Below are positions 3,414-53,142 of a DNA stretch of 64,000 nucleotides, piece after piece (position 1 is the stretch's first letter; every line of letters begins with the position of its first letter). A model generated the notes under the pieces. It had not been told where the DNA came from, made no database searches, and saw only the letters and a program-made list of their open reading frames with translations. The DNA is taken from NCBI GenBank assembly GCA_944385545.1, contig CALWXQ010000001.1, forward strand, positions 48,697-112,696, read 5' to 3'. A program made the translations under genes and the position numbers. The stretch is from an uncultured Oscillospiraceae bacterium (GTDB lineage Bacteria; Bacillota; Clostridia; Oscillospirales; Oscillospiraceae).

Positions 3414-4092
3414 GGATCTGGAAGCCGCCATCGGTTATCGGTTCAAAAACCTTTCCCTGCTGCAAAACGCCCTGACCCATTCCTCCTACGCCAACGAACG
3501 CTGGCACAACAGCCTGCTCAGCAACGAGCGGCTGGAATTTCTGGGCGACAGCGTGCTGGGAATGCTGGTGGCGGAATACCTGTTCCGCAACTTTCCCAAC
3601 CGGCCGGAGGGAGAGCTGACCAGAATGCGGGCGGACATGGTCTGCGAAAAGACCCTGGCGGCTGCCGCCAACCGCATTGGTTTGGGCGAGCATCTGCTGC
3701 TGGGCCACGGCGAGGAGCAGGGCGGAGGCCGCAGCCGGGATTCCATTCTGGCCGACGCGGTGGAATCGGTGATCGCCGCCTGCTTCCTGGACGGCGGAAT
3801 CACGGCGGCGTTGCAATTTGTTCAGCAGTTTATCCTGGTGGAGGTTCCGGTGACGAAGCTGCACAACATGGACTATAAGACCCGGCTCCAGGAGCTGGTG
3901 CAGCAGAAGAAGAACCAGGTGCTGGCATACAGTTTGGTGGGGCAGTCCGGCCCCGACCATGACAAGCGCTTTGACGTGGAGGTCAGCCTGAACGGAGCGG
4001 TGGTCGGCCATGGCTCCGGCAGCAGCAAGAAGCGGGCTGAGCAGGACGCGGCTAGGGCAGCCATTGGGAAGCTGTTCCCTGATGCGGATTAG
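3406..4092 (+). CDS. rnc: ribonuclease III
   Basis: ALTHSSY, NERLEFLGDSVL, and C-terminal dsRBD (DYKTRLQE...GPDHDKRF...GSSKKRAEQDAA). Confidence 0.97.
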   Translation: MIKDLEAAIGYRFKNLSLLQNALTHSSYANERWHNSLLSNERLEFLGDSVLGMLVAEYLFRNFPNRPEGELTRMRADMVCEKTLAAAANRIGLGEHLLLGHGEEQGGGRSRDSILADAVESVIAACFLDGGITAALQFVQQFILVEVPVTKLHNMDYKTRLQELVQQKKNQVLAYSLVGQSGPDHDKRFDVEVSLNGAVVGHGSGSSKKRAEQDAARAAIGKLFPDAD

Positions 4093-4253
4093 GGAAGCTC
4101 TGAATAAATCGTCTTCGGCTGAATGCCGGATCTTTTGCCCCATCCGTGCAGTTTAAAAAGTGGGAAATACATACAGTATTCCTCCACTTTTTAAACTTTC
4201 GGCTGAGTCAAAATCTCTCGGCATCAGCTCTTGCCGATTTAATCAGAGCTTCC
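4093..4253. mobile_element. 161-bp palindromic MITE with IS5-subgroup-like ends (most intact copy in the window)
   Basis: TIR GGAAGCTCTGAATAAATCG matches the reverse complement of the right end at 18/19. Flanked by TTAG direct repeats at 4089-4092 and 4254-4257. Internal perfect 13-bp stem GTTTAAAAAGTGG/CCACTTTTTAAAC. No transposase. Confidence 0.88.
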
Positions 4254-4256
4254 TTA

Positions 4257-4322
4257 GAAGTCTCTGAATCAATGGCCTTCGGCTCAATGCCGGAGCTGTT
4301 GCCGATTTCATCAGAGGTTCCT
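4257..4322. repeat. internally deleted tandem copy of the same MITE
   Basis: GAAGTCTCTGAATCAATGGCCTTCGGCTCAATGCCGGA matches the left arm and TTGCCGATTTCATCAGAGGTTCC the right arm. Shares the TTAG with the first copy. Confidence 0.75.
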
Positions 4323-24784: not shown

Positions 24785-25771
24785 ATGACCCGGGACACCG
24801 TATCGGTGATCGTACCGGCGTATAACGCGGCGGAATTCCTGAGTGCCTGTCTGGACAGTCTCCTGGCGCAAACCTGGGAAGACCTGGAAGTGGTGGTGGT
24901 CAACGACGGTTCCACCGACGATACGGCCCAGAAGCTGGAGGCTTATGCCCAAAAGCACCCCAGGGTGCGGGCAGTGAACCAGGAAAACCGGGGCGTCACC
25001 GCGGCCCGGCTGCGGGGCGTGGCGGAAGCCGGGGGAGACTGGATCGGCTTCGTGGACGCGGACGACGTGGTAGAGCCGGATATGTACCGGCGGCTTATGG
25101 AAAATGCCCGGACTTACGGCTGCGACATCTCCCACTGTGGTCACCGGATCGTTTTCCCAGACGGCCGGATTGCCTATGTCCACAATACCGGCGTGCTCCG
25201 CCGGCAGGACACCCTTACCGGGCAGCGGGATCTGCTGGACGCGGGGCAGATCGACGCCAGCCTGTGCACCAAGCTGTTCCGCAGGACCCTGTTTCAGGGG
25301 ATCGGGGAATGGATGGAGCCGGGGATCACCAACAATGAAGACTTTTTGATGAATTTCTACCTGTTCTCCCGCTCCGGCGGCAGCGTCTATGAGGACGTAT
25401 GTCCTTATCACTATCTGCTGCGCCGGGGATCTGCCTCCTACCGCACATTCCATGAGCACAGCTTGTTCGACCCCATTCGGGTGCGGCAGCTGGTGGCGGA
25501 CAGATGCGCCCCGGAGCTGCGCCGGGACGCCAGGAACGCCCTGCTGCGCAACCTGTTGTTCATCTATGCCCGGCTGGCGGTGGAAACAGGGGAGAACCGG
25601 AAAGCCTACCGCAGGCGGGTGCGGCAGCTTCTGCGGGAAAACAGGCCGTATTATGACGTGCTGTCCCCCCGGAACCGGCTGCTGGCCAACATGATCTGCT
25701 ATGCGCCCTGGAGCTTCCGAGCTGCCTATCAGCTGTATGTGGCCCTGTTCCAGCGGCAGGAGCAGCATTAA
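24785..25771 (+). CDS. GT2 glycosyltransferase
   Basis: SVIVPAYN, VNDGSTD, FVDADD, NED. Confidence 0.9.
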   Translation: MTRDTVSVIVPAYNAAEFLSACLDSLLAQTWEDLEVVVVNDGSTDDTAQKLEAYAQKHPRVRAVNQENRGVTAARLRGVAEAGGDWIGFVDADDVVEPDMYRRLMENARTYGCDISHCGHRIVFPDGRIAYVHNTGVLRRQDTLTGQRDLLDAGQIDASLCTKLFRRTLFQGIGEWMEPGITNNEDFLMNFYLFSRSGGSVYEDVCPYHYLLRRGSASYRTFHEHSLFDPIRVRQLVADRCAPELRRDARNALLRNLLFIYARLAVETGENRKAYRRRVRQLLRENRPYYDVLSPRNRLLANMICYAPWSFRAAYQLYVALFQRQEQH

Positions 25772-25785
25772 AGGAGGAAACGCCT

Positions 25786-26769
25786 ATGAAGGAGCTGCCG
25801 CTGCTGAGCGTGATCGTACCGGTGTACAATGTGGAAGCCTACCTTCCCCGATGCATCCGATCCATTGCGGAGCAGACCTATGCCAATCTGGAGGTGCTGC
25901 TGGTGGACGACGGTTCCACAGACGCCGGCGGGGATATCTGTGACGCCTGGGCTGCCCGGGACAGCCGCGTCCGGGTGATCCATAAGGAAAACGGCGGCGC
26001 CGGAGCGGCCCGGAATCTGGGGATGGACATGGCCCGGGGGGAACTGCTGGGCTTTGTGGACAGCGACGACTACCTGCATCCGAAGATGTACGAGCATCTT
26101 TACAGCCTGATGGCGGGGGATGTGGACATTGCCGAATGCGTCCTGGTTACAACAGATCGGGACGACGCGCCCTTGGAGGACGGCAGCGCCGCCAAAACCG
26201 CCACCTATACCCGGGAGGCGGCTATGAGGCTGCACATCCGGGACGAGATCTTTTGCCAAACGCCTCCCAATAAGCTTTACCGCCGGGAAACGGTGGAGAA
26301 CGTCCGCTTTCCTGTGGGGAACCTGATCGACGACGAGTTCTTTACCTACCGGGCCATTGGCAGCGCCCGGCGCTTGGTCCGGTCGGACAGCCGGATGTAT
26401 GCCTACCGCCAGCAGACCGGCAGCGCCATGCACAAGCCCTATTCCCTGAAGCGGCTCCAGGGCCTGGACGGGAAGCTGGAACGGCTGGACTATCTGAAAC
26501 AGCATCTGCCCGGGCTGGAGCAGGAAGCGAAGCGGGATCTGCTGTTTTCCTGCCTGATGGCTATGCAGAACTGCCTGCGGTTCCTGCCCGGGGACGAACT
26601 GGAAGCGGCGTGGGAGAAAATCAACGGGATTCTGCCCCGGATCACGCCGGTGCCATGGAGCCGGGAGGCGGGGCTGAGGCGAAACGGCTTGTTGAAGCTG
26701 GCCCAGATTTCCTTCCCCGGCACCTGCCGGATGCTGAATTTCCTTGAGGATATCCATGTGTTGCGATAG
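25786..26769 (+). CDS. GT2 glycosyltransferase
   Basis: SVIVPVYN, VDDGSTD, FVDSDD, NKLYR, IDDEF. Confidence 0.9.
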   Translation: MKELPLLSVIVPVYNVEAYLPRCIRSIAEQTYANLEVLLVDDGSTDAGGDICDAWAARDSRVRVIHKENGGAGAARNLGMDMARGELLGFVDSDDYLHPKMYEHLYSLMAGDVDIAECVLVTTDRDDAPLEDGSAAKTATYTREAAMRLHIRDEIFCQTPPNKLYRRETVENVRFPVGNLIDDEFFTYRAIGSARRLVRSDSRMYAYRQQTGSAMHKPYSLKRLQGLDGKLERLDYLKQHLPGLEQEAKRDLLFSCLMAMQNCLRFLPGDELEAAWEKINGILPRITPVPWSREAGLRRNGLLKLAQISFPGTCRMLNFLEDIHVLR

Positions 26770-26778
26770 GAGTGGAGC

Positions 26779-27681
26779 ATGAGCTGGAAGTATAAAATAA
26801 CCGTCTTTACCCCCACCTATAACCGGGCCTACACCATTGAAGCGCTGTACCGATCCTTGCAACGCCAGCGCTTTGCGGATTTTGAATGGCTGGTGGTGGA
26901 CGACGGATCCTCGGATCAAACAGAGGAATTGTTTGCCGCTTGGGCAAAGGAGGAAAATCCCTTTCCCATCCGGTACTATCAGCAGGAAAACGGCGGCAAA
27001 TGCCGGGCCATCAACCGCGGGCTGGATTTGGCCCGGGGCGAGCTGTTCTTCAATGTGGACTCTGACGACTATCTGACCGATGACGCTTTGCAGAAGGTAG
27101 CCGCTTGGGAACAGAGTTTGCCCGAGGGGAAACCATACTGCGGCTTTGCCGGGAACCTGGGAACGGCTCCGGACGTCACCCCCAACACCCCGTTGGACGG
27201 CGGATTCTATGACGGTACTGCCTTTGACCGCTACGGCATTGTGGACGGGGAACGGGCTTGCGTTTTCTATACCCAGGTGCACCGGAAGTACAAGTATCCG
27301 GAATTTCCCGGCGAGACCTTTCTTACCGAGGCGGTGGCCTGGAACCGGATGGCCGGGGACGGGTACGCAATGCGGTTTTACAATGACATTATCTGCATCT
27401 ATGAATACAGACCCGACGGACTGACCAACTCCGGTTACCAGCTGTTCCTGGACAATCCCCAGGGTACAGGGCTATTTTTCCGGGAAAAGGCGAAATACTT
27501 CCGCTATTCCCCCAAAACCATGCTGGGCATGTGGTACGGCTTCACCTGCGACGCCATGGATCGGTGTACCAACGCCCAGATCGCGGAATATATCGGCATG
27601 CCCCGGCTGCTGGTGGAACCGATGAAGCAGCTGCACAATCTGATCCAATTTGTTCGGAAAATGAGGAATCCAAATGGCTGA
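26779..27681 (+). CDS. GT2 glycosyltransferase
   Basis: TVFTPTYNR, VDDGSSD, NGGK, VDSDD. Confidence 0.9.
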   Translation: MSWKYKITVFTPTYNRAYTIEALYRSLQRQRFADFEWLVVDDGSSDQTEELFAAWAKEENPFPIRYYQQENGGKCRAINRGLDLARGELFFNVDSDDYLTDDALQKVAAWEQSLPEGKPYCGFAGNLGTAPDVTPNTPLDGGFYDGTAFDRYGIVDGERACVFYTQVHRKYKYPEFPGETFLTEAVAWNRMAGDGYAMRFYNDIICIYEYRPDGLTNSGYQLFLDNPQGTGLFFREKAKYFRYSPKTMLGMWYGFTCDAMDRCTNAQIAEYIGMPRLLVEPMKQLHNLIQFVRKMRNPNG

Positions 27682-28531
27682 TCGTTTACATTCTTCCTAT
27701 CATATCCATATTTCCGCCAAGCACCGGCTGCTGGAGCTGAAGCTGCGGGAGGTCTGGCGGTATCGGGATCTCATCGCTCTGTTTGTCAAGCGGAACTTTG
27801 TCGTATCCTACAAGCAAACCATTCTGGGGCCGGCCTGGATTTTCCTGACGCCCCTGTTCAGCAGCCTTGTTCAGGCCTTCGTCTTCGGCGGCATCGCCGG
27901 GATCGCCACCGACGGCATTCCCATGCTGCTGTTCTATCTGTTCAGCAACGCGGTGTGGGGCTTTTTCGCTACCTGTCTGACCAGCAACGCCAATACCTTT
28001 ACGGACAACGCCTATGTGTTCGGCAAGGTGTATTTCCCCCGGCTGACAACGCCCATCTCCAACATATTTTCCGCGGTGATCCGCTTTGGCATTCAAATGG
28101 TGCTGGTGCTGGCGTTCATGGCGTATTTTTTGATCCGGGGGGAGGTTCACCCCAACTGGGGCGCCTGGCCGGTGATTCTGGTGGAACTGCTGCACCTGGG
28201 GATCCTGGGCATGGGCTGCGGCATCATCATCTCCAGCCTGACCACCAAATACCGGGATCTGATCGTGCTCATCGACTTCGGGGTTTCCGCCTGGATGTAT
28301 CTGACCCCGGTGGTGTACCCCCTTTCCACCATTGGCCAGGAATGGATGAAGACTGCCCTGATGGTTAACCCGGTGACCATGCCCCTGGAGGTAATGCGCT
28401 GCGCCGTTTTGGGAAAAGGTGTGTTCCATTGGGGGTTCTACGGCCTTTCCTGGGCGATCACTTTGTTGGTGGCCTTTACCGGCATTGTGATTTTTAACAA
28501 AGTGGAACGAACCTTTATGGATACGGTGTGA
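27674..28531 (+). CDS. wzm: polysaccharide ABC exporter permease Wzm
   Basis: YKQTILGPAW, KVYFPR, KYRDL, MYLTPVVYP, NPVT; six TM helices. Confidence 0.92.
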   Translation: MADRLHSSYHIHISAKHRLLELKLREVWRYRDLIALFVKRNFVVSYKQTILGPAWIFLTPLFSSLVQAFVFGGIAGIATDGIPMLLFYLFSNAVWGFFATCLTSNANTFTDNAYVFGKVYFPRLTTPISNIFSAVIRFGIQMVLVLAFMAYFLIRGEVHPNWGAWPVILVELLHLGILGMGCGIIISSLTTKYRDLIVLIDFGVSAWMYLTPVVYPLSTIGQEWMKTALMVNPVTMPLEVMRCAVLGKGVFHWGFYGLSWAITLLVAFTGIVIFNKVERTFMDTV

Positions 28532-29844
28532 GGATGGAAGCAATGGACAGGAATGAGAATCGGGAAATTGCCATTCGGCTTTCCGGCGTGAAGAAAAAAT
28601 ATAAGCTGGGCCAGATCGGCGGCGCCACGCTGTCGGAGGAGCTGCAAAGCTGGTGGGCAAGGGTCCGGGGAAAAGAGGATCCCAACGTCCCCATCGGCAC
28701 CGACCAGCGTCTCATCGGCCAGACCTTTATGGCCCTAAACGGCATCGATCTGACGGTGTATAAAGGGGAAGCCCTGGGCATCATCGGCAGCAACGGCGCG
28801 GGCAAGAGCACCATGCTGAAAATGCTGTGCCGCGTTACCGCGCCTACGGCGGGAGAGATCGACCTGTACGGCCGGATCGCCTCCATGCTGGAGGTGGGCA
28901 CCGGCTTCAACGGGGAGATGACCGGCCGGGAGAATATCTACATGAACGGCGCTATTCTGGGCATGACCAAGGCGGAGATCGATGCCAAAATGGAGGACAT
29001 TATTGAGTTTTCCGAAGTGCGGGACTTTATCGACACCCCAGTCAAGCGCTATTCCTCCGGCATGTTCGTCAAGTTGGCCTTCTCCGTGGCGGCCCATTTG
29101 GACAGCGAGATCATGATTATGGACGAAGTGCTGGCGGTGGGCGACATGGCTTTCCAGAAAAAGTGTCTGGATAAAATGCGCCAGGCCGCCAAGGTAGACG
29201 GCAGAACGGTGCTCTATGTCAGCCATAACATGAATACCATCCGCCGCCTGTGTGACCGCTGCATCGTACTGGACAAGGGCAGGATCCTTTATGACGGCGA
29301 TGTAGAGGAGGCCATCGGCCTGTACCTGAGCAGCACCCACGATGCCTGGGCGGAGGGACAGACGGAGTTCGACCTGAGCAATGCGGTGAGCCGCTCGCCC
29401 TATACCCAGGGTAATGCCCGGATCACCTGGCTGAAGCTGGAGGATAAGGAAAGCGCTTTGTATGGGCCGGAGGAGCCGGTGAAGATGCGCCTTCGTATCC
29501 AGACCAAGCGGGCGTACAAGGCGCTGTACCTTCGCGTGGAGCTGCGCTACAGCGACGAGTCCCCGGTGGGCACCATGCCTAAGATCTGCCTGGGGGCCTG
29601 CGGGGAAAACCAGACCCGGGAATTCCGGGTGACCGTTGCCCATCCGGAGCTGTCCGGTGGCCGGTATCGGGTGGATCTGGTGCTGTTTGATATGGACGAG
29701 TTCGGAAACAGCTTCGATCAGGAGCTGCTGCTGCCCGCCTTTTCCTTTGAGGTTCAGGGCCGGCCGGATATTGTGTGGAATCAGCATACCTGGGGCCACG
29801 TCCGTTTCCCTGACGCGCAGGTGGCTGTGCTGCCGGAGGTGTGA
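28528..29844 (+). CDS. wzt: polysaccharide ABC exporter ATPase Wzt with C-terminal Wzt_C domain (start may be ATG 28543)
   Basis: GSNGAGKST, LEVGTGF, PVKRYSSGM, DEVLAVGD, VSH, plus a long beta-rich C-terminal extension. Confidence 0.92.
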   Translation: MRMEAMDRNENREIAIRLSGVKKKYKLGQIGGATLSEELQSWWARVRGKEDPNVPIGTDQRLIGQTFMALNGIDLTVYKGEALGIIGSNGAGKSTMLKMLCRVTAPTAGEIDLYGRIASMLEVGTGFNGEMTGRENIYMNGAILGMTKAEIDAKMEDIIEFSEVRDFIDTPVKRYSSGMFVKLAFSVAAHLDSEIMIMDEVLAVGDMAFQKKCLDKMRQAAKVDGRTVLYVSHNMNTIRRLCDRCIVLDKGRILYDGDVEEAIGLYLSSTHDAWAEGQTEFDLSNAVSRSPYTQGNARITWLKLEDKESALYGPEEPVKMRLRIQTKRAYKALYLRVELRYSDESPVGTMPKICLGACGENQTREFRVTVAHPELSGGRYRVDLVLFDMDEFGNSFDQELLLPAFSFEVQGRPDIVWNQHTWGHVRFPDAQVAVLPEV

Positions 29845-29849
29845 GGTGA

Positions 29850-30995
29850 ATGGATAAGATTAAGGTGGTTTTCGTCAACCACAGTCTGGTTTGCGGGGGA
29901 GCCGAGAAGGCGCTGTTTGATCTGATCTGTCTGCTGGATAAGGAAACATTTGAGCCCTGCGTTTTTGTACAAAACCCGGGAAACACCTGGGATGACAAAT
30001 TTGTGGCTGCCGGGATCCCGGTGATCTATGATTACTCCTGCCGGCAACCCACATGGAACCCGGTGAAGAAGCTGGGCAACGGAATCAAAAAACTGCGCAT
30101 TCGTCGGGCTTATCAGAATAACGGAGAAGGTTTGCTGGATATCTGCTTTCCGGAGGGCATTGACATCGTGGTATCCTACAATGTCTGGGTGAATGAGCCG
30201 CTGGTTTTTGCCAGGAATGCCAAGACGGTGAAGTATATTCACGGGGATCCGGGAACCAATTCGGACTATCGGGAGGAAGCTGTGAATCACAAGCAGCTGC
30301 TTTCCCGCTTTGACCGGATCGTCTGTGTCTCCCAGGCGGCGACGGAAGCGTTTCAGCGGCTGAGCGGCCTGCCTGCGCAGTTGCACTACAACCCTATGGA
30401 CAGCGACTATGTCCACAGGCTGGCCCGGGAACCGGTGGAACTGCCTGTGGATTTGCCCATTATGTGCGCGGTGGGCCGCCTGTCCCCGGAGAAGGGCTTT
30501 GAACGGCTGATTATCCTCCACAAGCGTTTGCTGGAGCAGGGAATCGCCCACCGCCTTGTGATCGTTGGCGACGGGCCGGATCGGGACTTTTTAAAGCGGT
30601 TGATCCGGGCCACCGGTACCCAGGATACCGTGTTCCTGGCGGGGTATCAGGAAAACCCCTACCCTTATATGGCGAAAAGCCGTTTTTTGGTAAACGCCTC
30701 CTTTACCGAAGGTCTTCCTGTGATCGCCATGGAAGGACTGTGCCTGGGGATCCCCATTGTGGCCCCTGTCCCTTCGGTGGCGGAAGCCTTCGGAGAGGAA
30801 ACCTGCGGCCTGATTACTGAGAATGACAACGATAGTCTGGAAGCGGGGATCCGTAAAATGCTTACGGATCAAGCGTTCTACGCCCAGGTCAAGGCAGGGG
30901 CGGAAAGACGCAGCGGGTTTTTCAACGGAAGACGTATGGTTCGGGAAATAGAAGATCTGTTCTGCTCCCTTGCTTCCCAGAGGGGCCAGCTGTAA
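29850..30995 (+). CDS. GT4 glycosyltransferase
   Basis: GGAEKAL, VGRLSPEKG, GYQENPY, EGLPVIAMEG. Confidence 0.88.
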   Translation: MDKIKVVFVNHSLVCGGAEKALFDLICLLDKETFEPCVFVQNPGNTWDDKFVAAGIPVIYDYSCRQPTWNPVKKLGNGIKKLRIRRAYQNNGEGLLDICFPEGIDIVVSYNVWVNEPLVFARNAKTVKYIHGDPGTNSDYREEAVNHKQLLSRFDRIVCVSQAATEAFQRLSGLPAQLHYNPMDSDYVHRLAREPVELPVDLPIMCAVGRLSPEKGFERLIILHKRLLEQGIAHRLVIVGDGPDRDFLKRLIRATGTQDTVFLAGYQENPYPYMAKSRFLVNASFTEGLPVIAMEGLCLGIPIVAPVPSVAEAFGEETCGLITENDNDSLEAGIRKMLTDQAFYAQVKAGAERRSGFFNGRRMVREIEDLFCSLASQRGQL

Positions 30996-31007
30996 GAAGG
31001 AGACGAT

Positions 31008-32003
31008 ATGGCACAAATCAGCGTGATTGTAGCGGTGTATAAAATGGAGCAGTTTTTGCCCCGATGCATCCAGAGCATTCTGAACCAGACATTTTCGGAT
31101 CTGGAGCTGATCCTGGTGGATGACGGAAGCCCGGATAACTGCGGAAGCATTTGCGATGATTATGCCCGGCGGGACAGCCGCGTTTCTGTGATCCATAAGG
31201 AAAATGCCGGCGTATGCGCTGCCAGAAACACGGGGCTGGACTGGGTATTTGAAAAAAGCCACAGCCGGTGGATCTTTTTCCACGATAACGATGACTGGAT
31301 GCACCCGAACACCCTGGAGTGGATGCTTCAGGCGGCCGAGGAAACCAACACCCAAATCTGCGTCTGCGGCTACGCCCAGACCACAGGGGCGGATCCTGAG
31401 ATTCGTCCGGAAACGTTAAAGCCGGTGCTTTGGACGCCAAAGGCATTTTATATGGAGCATTTTGTCAACGCTACGGTATGCTGGGGCAAGCTGTATGCCA
31501 AGGCATGCTTTGCGGGGCGGCGCTACCCGGAAGGGAAATACATGGAAGATGAGTTTTTGACCTACCGGCTCCTGTTTGCCCAGGAAAAGCTCTGCGTGAT
31601 CCCCGCGCCGCTGTATGCCTATTTTGTAAATCCAACCGGGATCACCAAGCGCGCCTGGGTTCCCAAACGTCTGGACGCCTGGGAGGCTTATGAAGAACAG
31701 CTGGCTTTCTTCGAAGCTATGGGGGATGAAGAACTGCTCCACTTCCGTTACCGGGGATATTTGGATAATGCTATGGTCAATTGGGCAGCGGCAAAAGAAA
31801 GTATTGATGTACCGAACCGGAAAGCGATCCTGCGCAAGATGAAAAAGCAGATCCGCGGCCTGATCCGCCGGGCCTGGCGGGGCGGTCATATGGAATTCTG
31901 GATCGATTTTGATATCCTGTATGAATTCTATCCCTATTTCACCAGAGCCTTCCGGTTTTGGATAGAGATCCGTGAATGGTTTAGGAGAGATCATCATGGC
32001 TGA
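31008..32003 (+). CDS. GT2 glycosyltransferase
   Basis: SVIVAVYK, VDDGSPD, FHDNDD, WGKLY, MEDEF. Confidence 0.9.
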   Translation: MAQISVIVAVYKMEQFLPRCIQSILNQTFSDLELILVDDGSPDNCGSICDDYARRDSRVSVIHKENAGVCAARNTGLDWVFEKSHSRWIFFHDNDDWMHPNTLEWMLQAAEETNTQICVCGYAQTTGADPEIRPETLKPVLWTPKAFYMEHFVNATVCWGKLYAKACFAGRRYPEGKYMEDEFLTYRLLFAQEKLCVIPAPLYAYFVNPTGITKRAWVPKRLDAWEAYEEQLAFFEAMGDEELLHFRYRGYLDNAMVNWAAAKESIDVPNRKAILRKMKKQIRGLIRRAWRGGHMEFWIDFDILYEFYPYFTRAFRFWIEIREWFRRDHHG

Positions 32004-33036
32004 CATCAGCGTAATTGTGCCGGTATATAAGGCGGAGGCTTATTTGCGCCGGTGTGTGGACAGCATCCTCGCCCAGAGCTATCAGGATTTGGAAGTGATT
32101 CTGGTGGAGGACGGCAGTCCCGACAACTGCGGGAAGATCTGCCGGGAATACGCCGCCAAGGATCCCAGGGTCACGGCGCTGCATCAGCAGAACCAGGGCC
32201 AGGCGGCAGCCCGGAACCGGGCCGTGGCCATAGCCAAAGGGGAATGGCTGTGCTTCGTGGACAGCGACGATGAAATTCACCCCCGGATGCTGGAGCTGCT
32301 GCACCGGGCCGCGGCGGAAAGCGGCGCGGCCATAAGCATGTGCCGGATGCTGGAGGCGGAAACCATGCCGGAGGACTTCCTCAGGCCGGCGACAGGGGAC
32401 TATGAAGTCCTTGCCATGGACGAGGATACCCTGCTGGACTGCTTTGACCGGGGGGAATACCCCGGCTGGGTGGCCTGCGCCAAGCTGATCCGCCGTAAGA
32501 TCGTGGAGGAAAAGCTGTTCACCGTCGGGCGGGTGTACGAAGACAACGAAGCGGTGTGCCACTGGATCCTAACGGCGGGGAAAATCGCCGCCCTTGGGGA
32601 AGAACTGTATTATTATCGAACCAATCCCCAAAGCACCACAAAAAAGACCTTCAGCCTGAAGCAGCTGGATTACCTGTGGGCATTGGAGCAGATCATCCGG
32701 TTTTACCATCAGAAGGGCTTGCGCCGCCTGGCGGGACGGTTTGCCGATCTGTACGTCCGGGAGGCGGCGGGCTTCTACCGAAGGGTCAGAAGCGAGCTGG
32801 AACGGCCGGATATTGCCAGGGGTATTCGCAGATCCGCCTGGGCCATGTTCCGGTCCGGCGGGATCTCCATGACCAAGGAACAGTTTGAGATCCTGCTGGA
32901 CGCCACGCATCCAAACCTGATCCGGCTTTACTGGCCGCTGGAAGGGGCGGCGCGCACCCTGCGGGGGCAGGGCTTCCGGGCAGTGCTGAAAAAAGTGAGA
33001 AAGCAGCTGGGAAAGGAAGAACGCTATGATCCCTAA
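31996..33036 (+). CDS. GT2 glycosyltransferase
   Basis: SVIVPVYK, VEDGSPD, FVDSDD, YED. Confidence 0.9.
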   Translation: MADISVIVPVYKAEAYLRRCVDSILAQSYQDLEVILVEDGSPDNCGKICREYAAKDPRVTALHQQNQGQAAARNRAVAIAKGEWLCFVDSDDEIHPRMLELLHRAAAESGAAISMCRMLEAETMPEDFLRPATGDYEVLAMDEDTLLDCFDRGEYPGWVACAKLIRRKIVEEKLFTVGRVYEDNEAVCHWILTAGKIAALGEELYYYRTNPQSTTKKTFSLKQLDYLWALEQIIRFYHQKGLRRLAGRFADLYVREAAGFYRRVRSELERPDIARGIRRSAWAMFRSGGISMTKEQFEILLDATHPNLIRLYWPLEGAARTLRGQGFRAVLKKVRKQLGKEERYDP

Positions 33037-33793
33037 GATCATCCACTATTGCTGGTTCGGGGGCAAGCCCAAGCCGCCCCTGGCCCAGAAGTGTCTGCAA
33101 AGCTGGAGCCGATTCTGCCCGGACTATGAGATCATCGAGTGGAACGAGAATAACTTCGATCTTTCCGCGGCGCCGCTGTATGTCCGTCAGGCCTATGAAG
33201 CCAAGCGCTGGGCCTTTGTGACGGACTATGTCCGGCTGAAGGCGCTGACGGAGCTTGGCGGGGTATACCTGGACACCGATGTGGAGCTGCTGAAACCCTT
33301 GGACGGCTTCCTGCATCACCAGGCCTTTGCCGGTTTTGAAAGCTTGCAGGGCGTACAGACCGGCTTGCTGGCCTGTCAGAAAGGATTTCCCCTGTTTCAA
33401 CGGTTTTTGGAGCATTACCATACAGCCAGCTTCCTTCGTTCCGACGGCACAGCGGATACCACCACCAATGTGGCGGTGCTCACTGCTCTGTGCCGGGAGC
33501 GGGGACTGCGCATGGACGATACTTATCAGGTGGTGGAGGGGTTGGCCGTCTATCCCCGGGAGGTGTTCTGTCCGGTGGATTATGATACGTTGAAGCTGAA
33601 AAAGACCCGCAAGACCGTTGTGATCCACTGGTTCTCCGGGAGCTGGCACACCGAGGAGGAGCTTCAGATCATGGCCCAAGAGAAGCGGCAGCTTCAGGAA
33701 GAAAAAAGAAGCAATATCCGATACCGCATAGGAACCACGCTTTTCGGTGAAGAAGGATATGAAAAGCTCAAAGAGTGGATCAGACGGGGATAA
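33026..33793 (+). CDS. GT32 (DXD/OCH1-like) glycosyltransferase
   Basis: MIPKIIHYCWFG, WAFVTDYVR, GGVYLDTDVE, HWFSGSW. Confidence 0.9.
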   Translation: MIPKIIHYCWFGGKPKPPLAQKCLQSWSRFCPDYEIIEWNENNFDLSAAPLYVRQAYEAKRWAFVTDYVRLKALTELGGVYLDTDVELLKPLDGFLHHQAFAGFESLQGVQTGLLACQKGFPLFQRFLEHYHTASFLRSDGTADTTTNVAVLTALCRERGLRMDDTYQVVEGLAVYPREVFCPVDYDTLKLKKTRKTVVIHWFSGSWHTEEELQIMAQEKRQLQEEKRSNIRYRIGTTLFGEEGYEKLKEWIRRG

Positions 33794-33814
33794 ACAGAAG
33801 TACGGGAGGACAAT

Positions 33815-34804
33815 ATGGCTGCCATCAGTGTCATTGTTCCGGTATACAAGGTAGAAACGTATCTCCACCGGTGCGTGGACAGCATTCTCAACCAGAGCTT
33901 TCGGGACTTTGAACTAATCCTGGTGGACGACGGAAGCCCTGACAATTGCGGCAGGATCTGCGACGACTATGCCGGGCAGGATCACCGGATCCGGGTGATT
34001 CATCAGGAAAACGGCGGGCTTTCCGCCGCCCGAAACGCAGGGCTCGACTGGGTGTTCGCCCACAGCAAAAGCACCTGGCTGACCTTTGTGGACAGCGACG
34101 ACTGGGTCTCGCCGGAGTATCTGCACCTGCTGTATCAGGCGGTACTGAACACCGGCTGCCGGATCAGTGCCTGCGGCTTGTTCCGTACGTCAGGGGAAGG
34201 ACTGCCGGAGGCGCTTCGCCAGCAGCCGGAAAGGCTGGACGCCGAAGCCTACTATTGCAGCCCCTATATTCACGGCGGCGTAACGGCGGTGGCCTGTAGC
34301 AAGCTCTACCACCGCTCGCTGTTTCAGAACCTGCGCTTTCCTGTGGGGAAGCTCCATGAGGATGAACTGACCACCTATCTTGCGGTGTATCAGGCGGGAG
34401 CTGTGGCGGTGATCCAGGGGCAGCTGTATGCCTACTTCCAGAATCCTACAGGGATCATGCTGTCCCAGTGGAACCCTAAGCGCATGCATCTGCTGGAGGC
34501 CATGGAGCAGCAGATCGCCTATGCCAAGCAGCGGGGCTATCCGGGACTTCTGAGGAAAGCGTCGGAGCAGTACGTTTACTGCGCCTATGAGCAGCTGAAC
34601 GCCGCGGCGGCACTGCCGGAGCAGCGGCGGTTTTGGGGCCTGCTGCGCAGGAAGCTGCGCAGAGCCCTGGCGTTGGGCAGAAAGCACCGGGCCTTTCCCT
34701 TCTCCTGGGATACTCTGTGGGCCTATGAACGGGCTTATCCCATGAAGCCCGTCTGGTGGCTGGCCCAGCGGATTAAGGAGACGCGGAGCAAGGGAGGAAG
34801 CTGA
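33815..34804 (+). CDS. GT2 glycosyltransferase
   Basis: SVIVPVYKVE, VDDGSPD, NGGLSAARNAG, FVDSDD, HEDE. Confidence 0.9.
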   Translation: MAAISVIVPVYKVETYLHRCVDSILNQSFRDFELILVDDGSPDNCGRICDDYAGQDHRIRVIHQENGGLSAARNAGLDWVFAHSKSTWLTFVDSDDWVSPEYLHLLYQAVLNTGCRISACGLFRTSGEGLPEALRQQPERLDAEAYYCSPYIHGGVTAVACSKLYHRSLFQNLRFPVGKLHEDELTTYLAVYQAGAVAVIQGQLYAYFQNPTGIMLSQWNPKRMHLLEAMEQQIAYAKQRGYPGLLRKASEQYVYCAYEQLNAAAALPEQRRFWGLLRRKLRRALALGRKHRAFPFSWDTLWAYERAYPMKPVWWLAQRIKETRSKGGS

Positions 34805-35778
34805 TGAGGGATTTGATTTCGGTGATCGTGCCGGTTTACAACGTAGCGCCGTTCCTGCCCCAATGCCTGGACAGCATCCTGACCCAGGGCTACCGGGCGC
34901 TGGAGGTGCTCCTGATCGATGACGGCTCTCAGGACGGTTCCGGGGCCGTCTGCGACGAATATGCCCGGCGGGACAGCCGCGTCCGGGTGCTCCATCAGAA
35001 AAATGCCGGAGCGGGAGCGGCGAAAAACGCCGGTCTTCGGGCCGCTGCCGGGGAATATCTGAGCTTTGTGGACAGTGACGATTTTCTGGAACCCGGGGCC
35101 TACAGCAGTATGCTGCAGCTGATGAAAGAAGCACAGGCGGACGTGGCGCACTGCGCATTTCGGGATGTCTACAGGGATCGCACGGAGGATCAGATCTCCG
35201 GTCAGGGAAGGAAAATTCTGGATGCCCAGACCTATTTGCGCGGCTTCCTCAACGACTGGACTTGTCCGCTGCTGTGGAATAAGCTGTATCGGCGGCAGCT
35301 GTATCATGGCGTGTTCTTTCCTGAGGGAAGAAAGATCGACGACGAGTTCTTTACCTACCGGGCATTTCTGAAGGAATGCAGGGTGGTGCGGGACGACCGG
35401 ATCGTATATAACTACCGCAAGCGGGCATCCAGCGCCATGGGCGATTACAACGCCGCCGGACGACGGCTGATGGACGCCCTGGACGCCATTGTCCAGCGGC
35501 GGGAGGAAACACTGCCGGTCTACCCCCAGCTGCGCAAAGCGCTGGACGAGAACTATCTGGATGCCGTTTGGTATCTGTCGGGGAATTTCGGTTGCACCGA
35601 GGACATGATCCGGATGCTGAAGGGTCATCTGAAAGATTACCTGAGAACCCCGGGAAACACCTTCCCACCCAGACACCTTTGGGCCAAACTGGCAGGACTG
35701 TTCTTCGCGGATCCGAAGAAACGAGCGGCTGCGTGTGAAGCGGTACGCCGGACACTGGATCAAAGCGACTACTTTTGA
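34804..35778 (+). CDS. GT2 glycosyltransferase
   Basis: SVIVPVYNV, IDDGSQD, FVDSDD, WNKLY, IDDEF. Confidence 0.9.
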   Translation: MRDLISVIVPVYNVAPFLPQCLDSILTQGYRALEVLLIDDGSQDGSGAVCDEYARRDSRVRVLHQKNAGAGAAKNAGLRAAAGEYLSFVDSDDFLEPGAYSSMLQLMKEAQADVAHCAFRDVYRDRTEDQISGQGRKILDAQTYLRGFLNDWTCPLLWNKLYRRQLYHGVFFPEGRKIDDEFFTYRAFLKECRVVRDDRIVYNYRKRASSAMGDYNAAGRRLMDALDAIVQRREETLPVYPQLRKALDENYLDAVWYLSGNFGCTEDMIRMLKGHLKDYLRTPGNTFPPRHLWAKLAGLFFADPKKRAAACEAVRRTLDQSDYF

Positions 35779-35841
35779 AGGGGATATTCCATGGCGCCTT
35801 TGGAGAGCGGCCCGTTGACGAAAAGCAGATGCGTCCCGGAT

Positions 35842-35901: not shown

Positions 35902-37632
35902 TTATTCGGACAGCTTGACGACGCAAATGTCTCCGATTATTTTTATGCAGCCGTAATAAGGATAGACTGCCATTTGGGCGAATTCTTCGCCGGCCCGGAT
36001 CCGGGAGATTTCTTCCTGGGAGGCAAAGGGAACAGACAGCCCAAGATAATACTCCAGAAAGTAGTTGTTGGAATAGGTATCCGGAGAAAAGCCTTTGATA
36101 CCGGTGATAGTATCTGTAAATGGCAGATGCTCGCTGTAAAACGCAGGCTCCCGATAGTCTCCGATCACGGCCAGCTTGGTCGTTTCGTCAAAATGGGGCG
36201 TCTGCTCCAGCTGGGCAAGCAGAGCTGTGTAGAAGGCCATGGAATTCTCATAGCGCAGATGGAGGTTGAGGAAAGCGGCGTTGGCGATGTATAGGTTGAT
36301 CGCAACAATCACCGCAAGGAGCAGGGTAAGCCCGTGCAGAGCGCCTTGTCGGAGCCAGCGGAACAGCCTTCCTTGGGGAAAAAGCGGAAGACAGACCTGA
36401 GCCAGCACCGCCGCGAGGATATACACCGCCACAAAGCCATAAAGCATCAACGTGTGAATGGCGTCCGGACTGGATAGCAGATACATGCAATTGATGCACA
36501 AGGGAAGCAAAGCGACCAAAGCGGCCAGCAAAGCGTACCGCCCGGCCTCGGCTGTTTGCCGGCTGATTCCCCACAGGAGAAAGAGAAGGGCACAGCAGAT
36601 CAGCAAAAGGAAATGGCTCCAACAGGAAAGGTCTGTAGGGATCAATCCATGCAAGCCGCTCCGGAGGGACTCAAAAAACGCGTTGTAGGCTAAGAGAATG
36701 CTACGGACAATGGAGGACAGGTCAAGGCGAAGTCTGGTACTGGCATATTCATTGAGCTGCACCTGCAGAAGCCAGTTGAAACAGAGGGTGGCGGCATAGT
36801 AAAGCCCCAGGCAAACCACCAGAAAGCCCAGGCAGAAAAAGCCGCGCCGGATGACCGCTGCAGTCTTTTCCCCATGGAGCAGCTGGGTGATGAGCAGCAA
36901 CACAAGCAGACTGGCGGTGACGGAAATATAGGGCTGATAGATGCTCAGGGACGCGATGCAGCAGACGGCTCCCGGAAGGGTATATTTCAGGAAGCGCTGA
37001 ATCAATCGGCTGCGGCTGAACGCCGGATCATTTCCCCCATCCCCGCGGCTGAAAAAGCGGGATATCCATACAGGCTGCTTTCTCCTTTTGAAGGTTTGGC
37101 TGTGACAAGATATCTCGGCGTCAGCGCCTGCCGCTTTCATCCGAGGTTCTTTAAGCTGCGCCAGCTGTACGAACCGAACGGCCAGAACCGACAGCAAAAA
37201 GGCAAGCATGTACGGGGCGGCGGTGAACATGTACCCCATTGTGCCGATCAAAGAGGGGAATACCATGACGGTTCCTGCCAGGAGAACCTGCAGCAGCTTG
37301 TTTTCAATGGAGAAGATGCGCAGCATCACGCAGATGGCCGTACTGACCAGCAGGATCGCCATCACGCCATAGATCCAGGGCATGGAAACATTGGGGAAAA
37401 TGCTGTCCAACAAGCCCAGTCCCCAGCGCCCGGAGGAGACAGTGGCCCCCTTGGTAAACAGGCAGCCCGTCTCGTCATGATTGATCAGCTTATTTGTAAA
37501 GGCGAACATATAGGCACCGAAGCCGGTAAGCAGCGAAGCGGCGAAGGCGACCCGATATTCGGCAAGTCTGCTTCCCAGCCACCTTGCTCCGCGTTCCCAG
37601 AGCAGAGGCTGGCTTTGACCTGATTGTGTCAT
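35902..37632 (-). CDS. GtrII-like integral membrane (GT-C) glucosyltransferase-domain protein carrying a 55-aa in-frame MITE insertion
   Basis: N-terminal NHDE...SGRW, SLSIYQ, many TM helices, C-terminal YPYYGCIKII. RBS AAGGAG upstream. Confidence 0.75.
   Translation of the reverse strand: MTQSGQSQPLLWERGARWLGSRLAEYRVAFAASLLTGFGAYMFAFTNKLINHDETGCLFTKGATVSSGRWGLGLLDSIFPNVSMPWIYGVMAILLVSTAICVMLRIFSIENKLLQVLLAGTVMVFPSLIGTMGYMFTAAPYMLAFLLSVLAVRFVQLAQLKEPRMKAAGADAEISCHSQTFKRRKQPVWISRFFSRGDGGNDPAFSRSRLIQRFLKYTLPGAVCCIASLSIYQPYISVTASLLVLLLITQLLHGEKTAAVIRRGFFCLGFLVVCLGLYYAATLCFNWLLQVQLNEYASTRLRLDLSSIVRSILLAYNAFFESLRSGLHGLIPTDLSCWSHFLLLICCALLFLLWGISRQTAEAGRYALLAALVALLPLCINCMYLLSSPDAIHTLMLYGFVAVYILAAVLAQVCLPLFPQGRLFRWLRQGALHGLTLLLAVIVAINLYIANAAFLNLHLRYENSMAFYTALLAQLEQTPHFDETTKLAVIGDYREPAFYSEHLPFTDTITGIKGFSPDTYSNNYFLEYYLGLSVPFASQEEISRIRAGEEFAQMAVYPYYGCIKIIGDICVVKLSE
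36990..37150. mobile_element. full-length MITE copy inserted in frame within the CDS
   Basis: Gapless alignment of 36986-37153 to 4089-4256, about 128/168 identical by hand count. Flanks are TTCA and TTAA. Confidence 0.9.
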
Positions 37633-44798: not shown

Positions 44799-45149
44799 AT
44801 GTTAACACCGAAACAAATCGCTTACGAAGTGACCAAGGCGTTGGATGCCAAAAAGGGCCTGGATATCAAGCTGCTGAAGATCGATCAGGTCAGCTCTCTG
44901 GCGGATTACTTTCTGATCTGCACCGGCACCTCCAATACCCATGTCAAGACCCTTTGCGACTATGCTGAGTATACCCTGGAGAACCTGGGTGAGCACATGC
45001 TGGGCCGGGAAGGCCACCGGGGCAATTCCTGGGAGCTGCTGGACTATGGCAGCATTGTGATCCATGTCTTTACTGAGGACGCCCGGAAGTTCTATGATCT
45101 GGAACGGCTGTGGGCCGACGCGGAAGCCGTTGACTTAGAGAACCTCTGA
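44799..45149 (+). CDS. rsfS: ribosome silencing factor RsfS
   Basis: ALDAKKG, ADYFLICTG, WELLDYG, VIHVF, FYDLERLW. Confidence 0.95.
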   Translation: MLTPKQIAYEVTKALDAKKGLDIKLLKIDQVSSLADYFLICTGTSNTHVKTLCDYAEYTLENLGEHMLGREGHRGNSWELLDYGSIVIHVFTEDARKFYDLERLWADAEAVDLENL

Positions 45150-45196
45150 ATCAATCATCTGTGGCTTACGCCTAAATCTTTTGCCCCATCCGCGCA
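45135..45196. repeat. left-arm fragment of the MITE overlapping the rsfS 3' end
   Basis: TTAGAGAACCTCTGAATCAATC...TCTTTTGCCCCATCCGCGCA; about 48/62 gapless identity to 4089-4150. Confidence 0.82.
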
Positions 45197-53076: not shown

Positions 53077-53142
53077 TTAGGGAACCTATGAATCCACCGG
53101 CTGCGGCGGAATGCCGGTTTCCTCAGCAAATCGGAGGTGTCC
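53077..53142. repeat. degenerate short copy of the MITE
   Basis: TTAG-GGAACCTATGAATCCACCGGCTGCGGCGGAATGCCGG matches the left arm; ATCGGAGGTGTCC resembles the right end. Confidence 0.65.

Follow-up and report, generated by a model that had tools for sequence, protein, structure and literature searches.

The window analysed here comprises 64,000 nucleotides of an uncultured Oscillospiraceae bacterium (assembly GCA_944385545.1, contig CALWXQ010000001.1, positions 48,697 to 112,696). It holds a gene for a membrane glycosyltransferase of the GtrII family, at 35902..37632 on the minus strand. We conclude that a MITE (miniature inverted-repeat transposable element) has inserted into this gene while preserving its full-length reading frame. 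The case is a dissected example of how a mobile repeat may add a peptide to a conserved membrane enzyme without breaking the enzyme. Its outcome is predictable: the element and its target duplication together measure a multiple of three nucleotides, and one phase of the target motif YTAR is permissive. In-frame fusions by MITEs have been known since the work on Rickettsia; what is new is the repeat family and the lineage, not the category.

The host gene encodes a protein of 576 residues, P0001. It matches the Pfam profile PF14264 (GtrII glucosyltransferase, GT-C-like) with an E-value of 2.5e-42 and 145.6 bits, for a cut-off of 30; NCBIfam returns no hit for it. Residues 43-403 cover profile positions 2-316, so that 361 residues are laid over 315 positions. 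The corresponding DNA footprint is 1,083 nt long, compared with ~920-940 nt in nine PF14264 genes of two congeners. This is the single PF14264 gene detected in the assembly, which is 85% complete; the two congeners have five and four.

The excess length coincides with a repeat. The core of the element, an old and diverged copy of 161 bp, occupies 36990..37150 on the minus strand, and 4-bp target duplications flank it on both sides. TTAA at 37151..37154 forms the gene-proximal 5' junction and is read C-TT-AA-A, that is Leu-Lys. The second copy of the duplication, at 36986..36989, is TTCA: its one change is synonymous (Leu, CTT to CTG). An intergenic copy at 4089..4257 on the plus strand (TTAG, a 161-bp core at 4093-4253, and TTAG again) serves as our reference; it is identical or nearly so to many copies elsewhere in the assembly. 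Positions 36986-37153 align to 4089-4256 without gaps at 128 identities out of 168, a hand count of the earlier note that we reproduced. For random 168-nt windows drawn from this DNA the count is 40.7 ± 5.6, and the highest of 20,000 is 74. In a blastn search of the assembly, the reference copy matches the coding copy over 164 nt with 76.8% identity (E 4e-30).

Core and duplication add up to 161 + 4 = 165 nt, or exactly 55 codons, corresponding to residues 161-215 of P0001. The open reading frame (ORF) 35902-37632 reads straight through the element, with Leu-Lys at both junctions. The inserted residues are basic (12 K/R for 5 D/E). All these features, together with the synonymous change in the duplication, had been read from the sequence in the earlier note, and each is verified here.

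Homologous proteins lack the segment. About 120 homologues are listed, mostly of 512-527 residues, with identities of 52% at best and down to ~44%. A clean gap had been predicted for orthologues, and we find a gap of exactly 55 residues at the element in all of the 13 homologues aligned initially, then in all of 69 (513-527 residues long). When the core and one duplication are removed in silico, the protein reads ...VQLAQL|KYTLPG..., and the loop takes the four-residue length it has in the homologues. Similarly, tblastn matches of P0001 in congeners split at residues ~156 and ~223; residues 160-216 match dozens of element copies instead.

One could suspect a repeat mis-assembled into the gene, or else the reverse direction, with an ancestral loop from which the repeats derive. 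The source is indeed a fragmented metagenome assembly in which many contigs end in repeats. But the coding copy is unique, at 77% identity to the reference copy, and hence not borrowed from another copy. Its boundaries are exactly those of the terminal repeats and target duplication, and independent assemblies carry the insert on single contigs of 8-100 kb. The reverse direction is contradicted by the 69 homologues without the loop. We give practically no credence to either possibility.

The assembly (2.03 Mb in 106 contigs, GC 58.9%) represents a Faecousia-like member of the Oscillospiraceae from chicken gut. Its copies of the family number 68 with a length of 150 nt or more, and a further 71 are partial. 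Eighteen of the full copies reach 95% identity or more to the reference, and many copies stand at 93-100%, pointing to recent mobility. The count is a lower bound, as many contig ends fall inside element copies. Contigs that begin or end in the element include C20:121, C15:130, C94:1-46, C11:84-125, C100:86-117, C25:71 and C52:56. The repeat family is a main cause of assembly breaks.

We set the element boundaries by aligning the ends of 47 well-preserved copies. The core starts with GGAAGCTCTGAAT and ends with the inverted complement of this start; the terminal inverted repeats read GGAAGCTCTGAATAAATCG and CGATTTAATCAGAGCTTCC. Over its full length the element forms an imperfect palindrome, matching its own reverse complement at ~75%, and the reference copy folds as one long hairpin, with a minimum free energy (MFE) of -75.7 kcal/mol versus -32.5 ± 4.3 for shuffled sequences. 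Among 62 delimited full copies, the core measures 161 bp in 40, 162 bp in 12 and 160 bp in 5, within a range of 147-163. With reading frames only 55 codons long, the element is too small for a transposase. The 4-bp target duplication varies by copy: both flanks are identical in 39/62, with nine different tetramers, and 30 of these 39 conform to YTAR (CTAA 12, CTAG 9, TTAA 6, TTAG 3). There are also mini-derivatives, ~50-75 bp in length, made up of nothing but the two ends. One lies in the window at 4257..4321 on the plus strand (~65 bp), abutting the reference copy and having a TTAG in common with it; others are at C16:22386-22437 and C43:6469. Being small, with terminal inverted repeats, a variable duplication and many dispersed near-identical copies, the repeat is a MITE.

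The terminal sequence is also present in many Faecousia assemblies, in other uncultured Oscillospiraceae and Clostridia, and in the isolate Pseudoflavonifractor sp. MSJ-30. We found no description of the repeat family in the literature, where the lineage-specific search (MITEs with Oscillospiraceae, Ruminococcaceae or Faecalibacterium) was weak, its query being too loose. It is an abundant and apparently undescribed family of Faecousia and related chicken-gut Oscillospiraceae, one that breaks assemblies and misleads gene callers.

The ends of the element begin with GGAAG and the duplication is YTAR (CTAG, CTAA, TTAG or TTAA), a combination that we take to be the signature of the IS5 group. In contrast to that group, no transposase-bearing partner was found for the present family: none with these ends in a scan of this genome for terminal repeats with non-MITE interiors, none among terminal-repeat pairs 0.6-2.5 kb apart, and none among 28 DDE_Tnp_1 loci in 61 genomes of the genus, whose draft assemblies may lack it. 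The assembly itself has one DDE_Tnp_1 fragment, at a contig end and without element ends. A 1,782-bp unit (L047), considered as an autonomous partner, proved to be a mini-derivative and an ordinary copy around normal genes.

How the frame survives follows from simple rules. Any canonical insertion keeps the downstream frame, because 161 + 4 nt make a whole number of codons. Within a gene, YTAR can be read in two phases only, because the third phase is itself a stop. In the phase YTA-Rxx, the terminal repeat gives G-K-L-stop: this phase terminates because the TGA of GGAAGCTCTGA comes in frame. In the phase xYT-ARx, the entry frame begins K/R-E-P/A-L and is stop-free in 20/40 canonical copies, in each orientation. 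The GtrII copy sits in this permissive phase.

The earlier note had singled out one codon, TGA in the reference copy (4210-4208) and TGT in the coding copy, where it encodes Cys176. The observation is correct; the consensus of the old subfamily, however, has TGG at this place, and the loss of a stop is unnecessary. As this consensus, like many copies, is already open in the frame of the GtrII copy, no stop had to be repaired there. The in-frame outcome is a product of length arithmetic and the phase rule, with nothing special needed.

A consensus was built from 15 old copies, which match it at 74-88%; the coding copy has 136/161 identities to it (84.5%) and no indel. The coding copy belongs to the old cohort, and its duplication has one mismatch, in agreement with the old insertion proposed before. 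The hairpin is gone: in mRNA sense the MFE is -49.7 kcal/mol, versus -48.9 ± 4.4 for shuffles, bearing out the decay of the central hairpin reported earlier. The GC content of the coding copy, 55.9%, is the highest of all copies (vs 44%), and old intergenic copies trend alike.

The 26 differences from the consensus are distributed 7/8/11 over the codon positions, with a pN/pS of 0.82. No selection is seen on the peptide sequence itself, which is probably neutral; after 26 random substitutions, the insert alone stays open in 38% of trials. The data support selection that keeps the host frame open, not the peptide sequence, and the earlier suggestion of an insert retained under selection for an open frame holds for the former only. 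Among strains we find five 576-residue variants with five substitutions, none of them in the insert, and one synonymous site, 37015 G>A. A dN/dS estimate for the insert across strains was abandoned, having no power at so few differences.

The host protein keeps what its family conserves. An alignment of 70 sequences contains 56 invariant columns, and P0001 agrees in every one of them. Conservation of 90% or more among the other 69 homologues marks out 138 columns, of which P0001 retains 130 (94%). This is the 10th lowest value of 70 and falls within the normal range of the family. Contigs of five or more independent metagenomic samples carry the exact protein, always in one glycosyltransferase-rich locus beside smc. 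The DNA of the locus is present in 20 sequencing runs from 10 studies, mostly of chicken gut. The insertion is fixed across samples.

It is quite unlikely that the insertion inactivated the gene and left a young or slowly decaying pseudogene, open by chance. Such a gene would be in keeping with the pN/pS of the insert, which betrays no purifying selection, and with its chance of 0.38 of staying open on its own; moreover, the permease gene that contains the other in-frame copy of this genome is clearly in decay, and the translation of P0001 is only presumed. But the argument changes when the host part is considered. Its 1,563 nt, subjected to random substitutions, stay open in 6% of cases at 5% divergence, in 0.5% at 10% and in ~0.08% at 15.5%, the divergence of the insert (P about 0.0008). 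Actual lesions number zero in 576 codons. The strongly conserved columns are retained within the range of the family, in what is the sole GtrII gene detected in the assembly, and the allele is fixed across samples of 10 studies in a conserved glycosyltransferase locus.

An array of about nine or ten paralogous family-2 glycosyltransferase genes adjoins the GtrII gene (window 24800-35800); their repeat families D1-D9 have motifs of the DxD region in common. This makes a large polysaccharide-modification locus that is conserved in other samples.

RNA libraries contain the insert. In two runs filed as metatranscriptomes, one contig spans 36891-37233, so that the entire insert is covered together with flanks of 95 and 79 nt, and a second one spans 36443-37081. 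No joint that skips the element occurs in the RNA-library contigs; parts of the gene are uncovered in those labelled X18 and X19, and these gaps are uninformative. An element removed after transcription or translation, like an intron or intein, would leave a mature enzyme without the loop, and we consider the probability of this negligible. Nothing positive speaks for it, unless one counts the long hairpin that the ancestral element could form. The contiguity of the RNA-library contigs over the insert stands against it, as does the hairpin of the coding copy, no more stable than shuffles. In addition, an Rfam search of the window gives no match, and neither an intein-like length nor intein motifs are apparent when the sequence is read, no intein profile search having been made.

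We modelled P0001 with AlphaFold2 from the 70-sequence alignment (pLDDT 87.3, pTM 0.88). In the model, the insert forms a disordered loop after the fourth membrane helix, the first four being 27-46, 85-106, 112-133 and 135-159. Residues 160-202 are predicted as coil, in which the pLDDT drops below 50 for 173-199; from 203 to 215 the chain runs into a helix spanning 203-231. The best Foldseek rows against the PDB are all GT-C enzymes (STT3, ALG12, ALG9, Pmt4, PglB, AftA), with weak scores (E 0.01-0.1, TM 0.3-0.4). The order of the helices, the conserved NHDE motif in the first loop and the arginines preceding the first helix would place the insertion loop on the cytoplasmic side, which suits a basic peptide.

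Has the loop acquired a function of its own, for example in regulation or in binding a partner on the cytoplasmic face? We hold such exaptation to be very unlikely. The five strain variants contain no amino-acid change in the insert and five elsewhere, but at a rate of five changes per 521 residues only about 0.5 would be expected in 55, and strain diversity is thus uninformative. The model has the last ~13 residues prolonging the next helix; residues 173-199, on the other hand, have the low pLDDT given above, and the differences from the consensus fall at all codon positions with a pN/pS of 0.82. The same family gives segments to several other proteins, yet these carry the peptide in linkers and tails, suggesting tolerance rather than use.

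For the GtrII gene we hold the following history to be probable. A non-autonomous DNA transposon, the MITE, inserted long ago at TTAA, in a short loop after the fourth membrane helix. With core and duplication amounting to 55 codons, the downstream frame was preserved, and the target phase xYT-ARx led into one of two stop-poor frames, open in the ancestral consensus. The product would be a full-length enzyme with a 55-residue basic segment, mostly disordered and probably on the cytoplasmic side, whose last dozen or so residues may extend the next helix. The species tolerated the insertion, which became fixed. From then on the whole frame has been held open by selection on the host enzyme while the insert drifted: its hairpin lost, its GC content raised and its pN/pS about 1.

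Several points weigh against this history. The nearest insert-free homologue is 52-56% identical, too distant to date the insertion, and an empty-site allele is lacking. Part of the divergence of the coding copy may predate the insertion, which weakens the argument from neutral decay. Placed between two membrane helices, a basic segment of 55 residues might hinder the entry of the protein into the membrane. The RNA-library contigs have a low depth of ~3-5x, and DNA carry-over is possible; translation and activity of the insert-bearing protein are presumed from the gene. The in-frame copy in the decaying permease gene of contig C10 shows that an open insert alone does not equal function. Finally, descent of the element from the IS5 group is putative, being deduced from its ends and duplication.

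We screened this genome for other interrupted genes: copies were excised in silico, a coding-like ORF was sought across the junction, and its halves were tested with Pfam. Read-through copies number 2/62 of the delimited full copies, one of them in a decaying gene. The genome-wide search envisaged in the earlier note thus bears out a large family (68 + 71 copies), but one whose in-frame copies within genes are rare. Young copies (93-99% identical to the reference) interrupt at least three genes and probably four; all four are in the non-permissive phase, with stops. A PFL-like glycyl-radical enzyme of ~775 residues is split by a 99% copy at C47:7315-7475 (L027), with profile positions 420|425 flanking the element; the host frame contains stops, and the disruption seems to be very recent. 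Copies at 95-96% identity, likewise with stops, lie in the genes of a membrane GHKL sensor kinase (C33:8438-8598, L028) and a GNAT acetyltransferase (C16:12269-12430, L029). A small SLOG/DprA-like gene is probably interrupted by a 93% copy at C15:8219-8379. The remaining delimited full copies of the assembly are intergenic.

The second read-through copy, open, 93% identical and in the permissive phase, lies in the gene of a xanthine/uracil-family permease (C10:15400-16900; L031:1176-2850). A C-run of this gene (after ...YALAP) contains a frameshift, and an in-frame TAG (GFTWQ*ALSM) lies upstream as well; the gene is probably a pseudogene, hence no functional example. The public collection holds a 405-residue fragment of it (P0204). 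An antisense artefact was considered for this copy and rejected, the copy being in frame within the permease gene. The spanning ORFs on contigs C48 and C14 were discarded as read-through cases, as they are short or an upstream remnant. A single genome thereby displays the full range, from fresh insertions that break genes, through an in-frame copy in a gene under decay, to an old in-frame copy within a conserved gene.

A second intact case occurs in Faecousia sp. FUKU01_bin.011 (L043:6340-7764), where a 161-bp copy is read through by a 474-residue DprA. Both domains are kept (E 2.4e-74 and 3.5e-12); the linker that joins the catalytic domain to the winged-helix domain accommodates the 55 additional residues. 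The insert is absent from seven congener orthologues, including the one of the genome studied here. Other read-through candidates from tblastn in congeners (G021, G016, G013, G019 and G011) were rejected, being antisense frames of GC-rich genes or elements upstream of the true start.

Profiles of two element-encoded peptides were searched against the longer proteins of a collection of 5.8 billion proteins. About 150 proteins of 100-250 residues (P0128-P0279) match the translated element, most of them without a Pfam domain. These domain-less matches probably consist largely of translated repeat and its flanks, the repeats having been mis-called as genes in Faecousia-like metagenome assemblies, and dozens of database 'proteins' would be translated repeats only. 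Hosts in the collection comprise a DprA cluster of eight members (P0210), a sulfatase-family protein in which the insert lengthens the domain envelope, a LacI-type regulator, a ThyX-like protein, an SLH protein, and two ABC exporters with the element peptide after about codon 5. Four further matches (P0219, P0257, P0279 and P0198) were not retained as insertions: the peptide is upstream of the likely true start or forms a terminal fragment.

Taken together, these sequences support the view that the family donates peptide segments repeatedly. The idea that it acts as a source of protein sequence, put forward in the earlier note, gains from the intact DprA and from the domain-bearing proteins of the collection. 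It is conceivable, if rather unlikely, that the family is pre-adapted to residence in genes, that it recurrently donates loops, linkers and N-terminal tails on which selection can act, and that the GtrII loop has functional consequences. The length with duplication is a multiple of three; there are two mirror-image frames, without stops in half of the copies; and the peptide of both is basic and disordered, its ends being similar whichever way the element is oriented. Should this be true, a system like the Rickettsia palindromic elements (RPEs) would exist in a free-living gut Firmicute, across Faecousia proteomes.

RPEs produce in-frame fusions at unusually high frequency (PMC10969869, which summarises Ogata et al. 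2000). Like the present element they are palindromes of ~150-160 bp, found in frame inside genes, where they add a few dozen residues at tolerant sites while the host protein is kept. The differences are considerable. Rickettsia and this Clostridia-class gut bacterium differ in phylum and lifestyle; a sequence relationship is neither shown nor expected. The present element has clear terminal inverted repeats and a 4-bp YTAR duplication. Its in-gene, in-frame copies are exceptional (2/62), whereas in RPEs they are habitual. By the criteria applied here the element is not an RPE. The earlier comparison with RPEs thus stands for behaviour, in which the two are analogous, but not for relationship or habitual residence in genes.

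In-frame fusions by intragenic MITEs are 'not unusual', with BOX, ERIC, QMITE1 and Anabaena MITEs as examples (2024 review, PMC10969869). Such protein fusions are a known outcome of MITEs, and basic peptides encoded by MITEs have been described (Coxiella paper, PMC5896051). ERIC, large BOX, QMITE1 and the Anabaena MITEs resemble the present family in being non-autonomous, in having open frames fused to host ORFs and in occurring as large and small versions; the peptides of QMITE1 are basic, as they are here. They differ in sequence family and lineage, and in the present family 161 + 4 = 165 nt and the two-phase rule account in full for the occurrence of read-through.

Similarities in size, abundance, inverted repeats and the existence of long and short forms also extend to the Correia elements, in contrast to which the present family duplicates YTAR. 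Correia elements of Neisseria are abundant inverted-repeat sequences of ~100-160 bp that alter neighbouring genes; they duplicate TA and act mainly via promoters, terminators and RNA processing. They are not known to supply internal protein segments.

Two more members of the family lie in the window, both on the plus strand. One at 53077..53138 is partial or short, and intergenic. The other, a truncated copy at 45135..45196, ends the ORF 44799-45149 with its terminal repeat: the target TTAG is in the non-permissive phase, and the element gives the ORF its last residues, LENL, and its TGA stop. The encoded protein of 116 residues resembles the ribosomal silencing factor RsfS in sequence.

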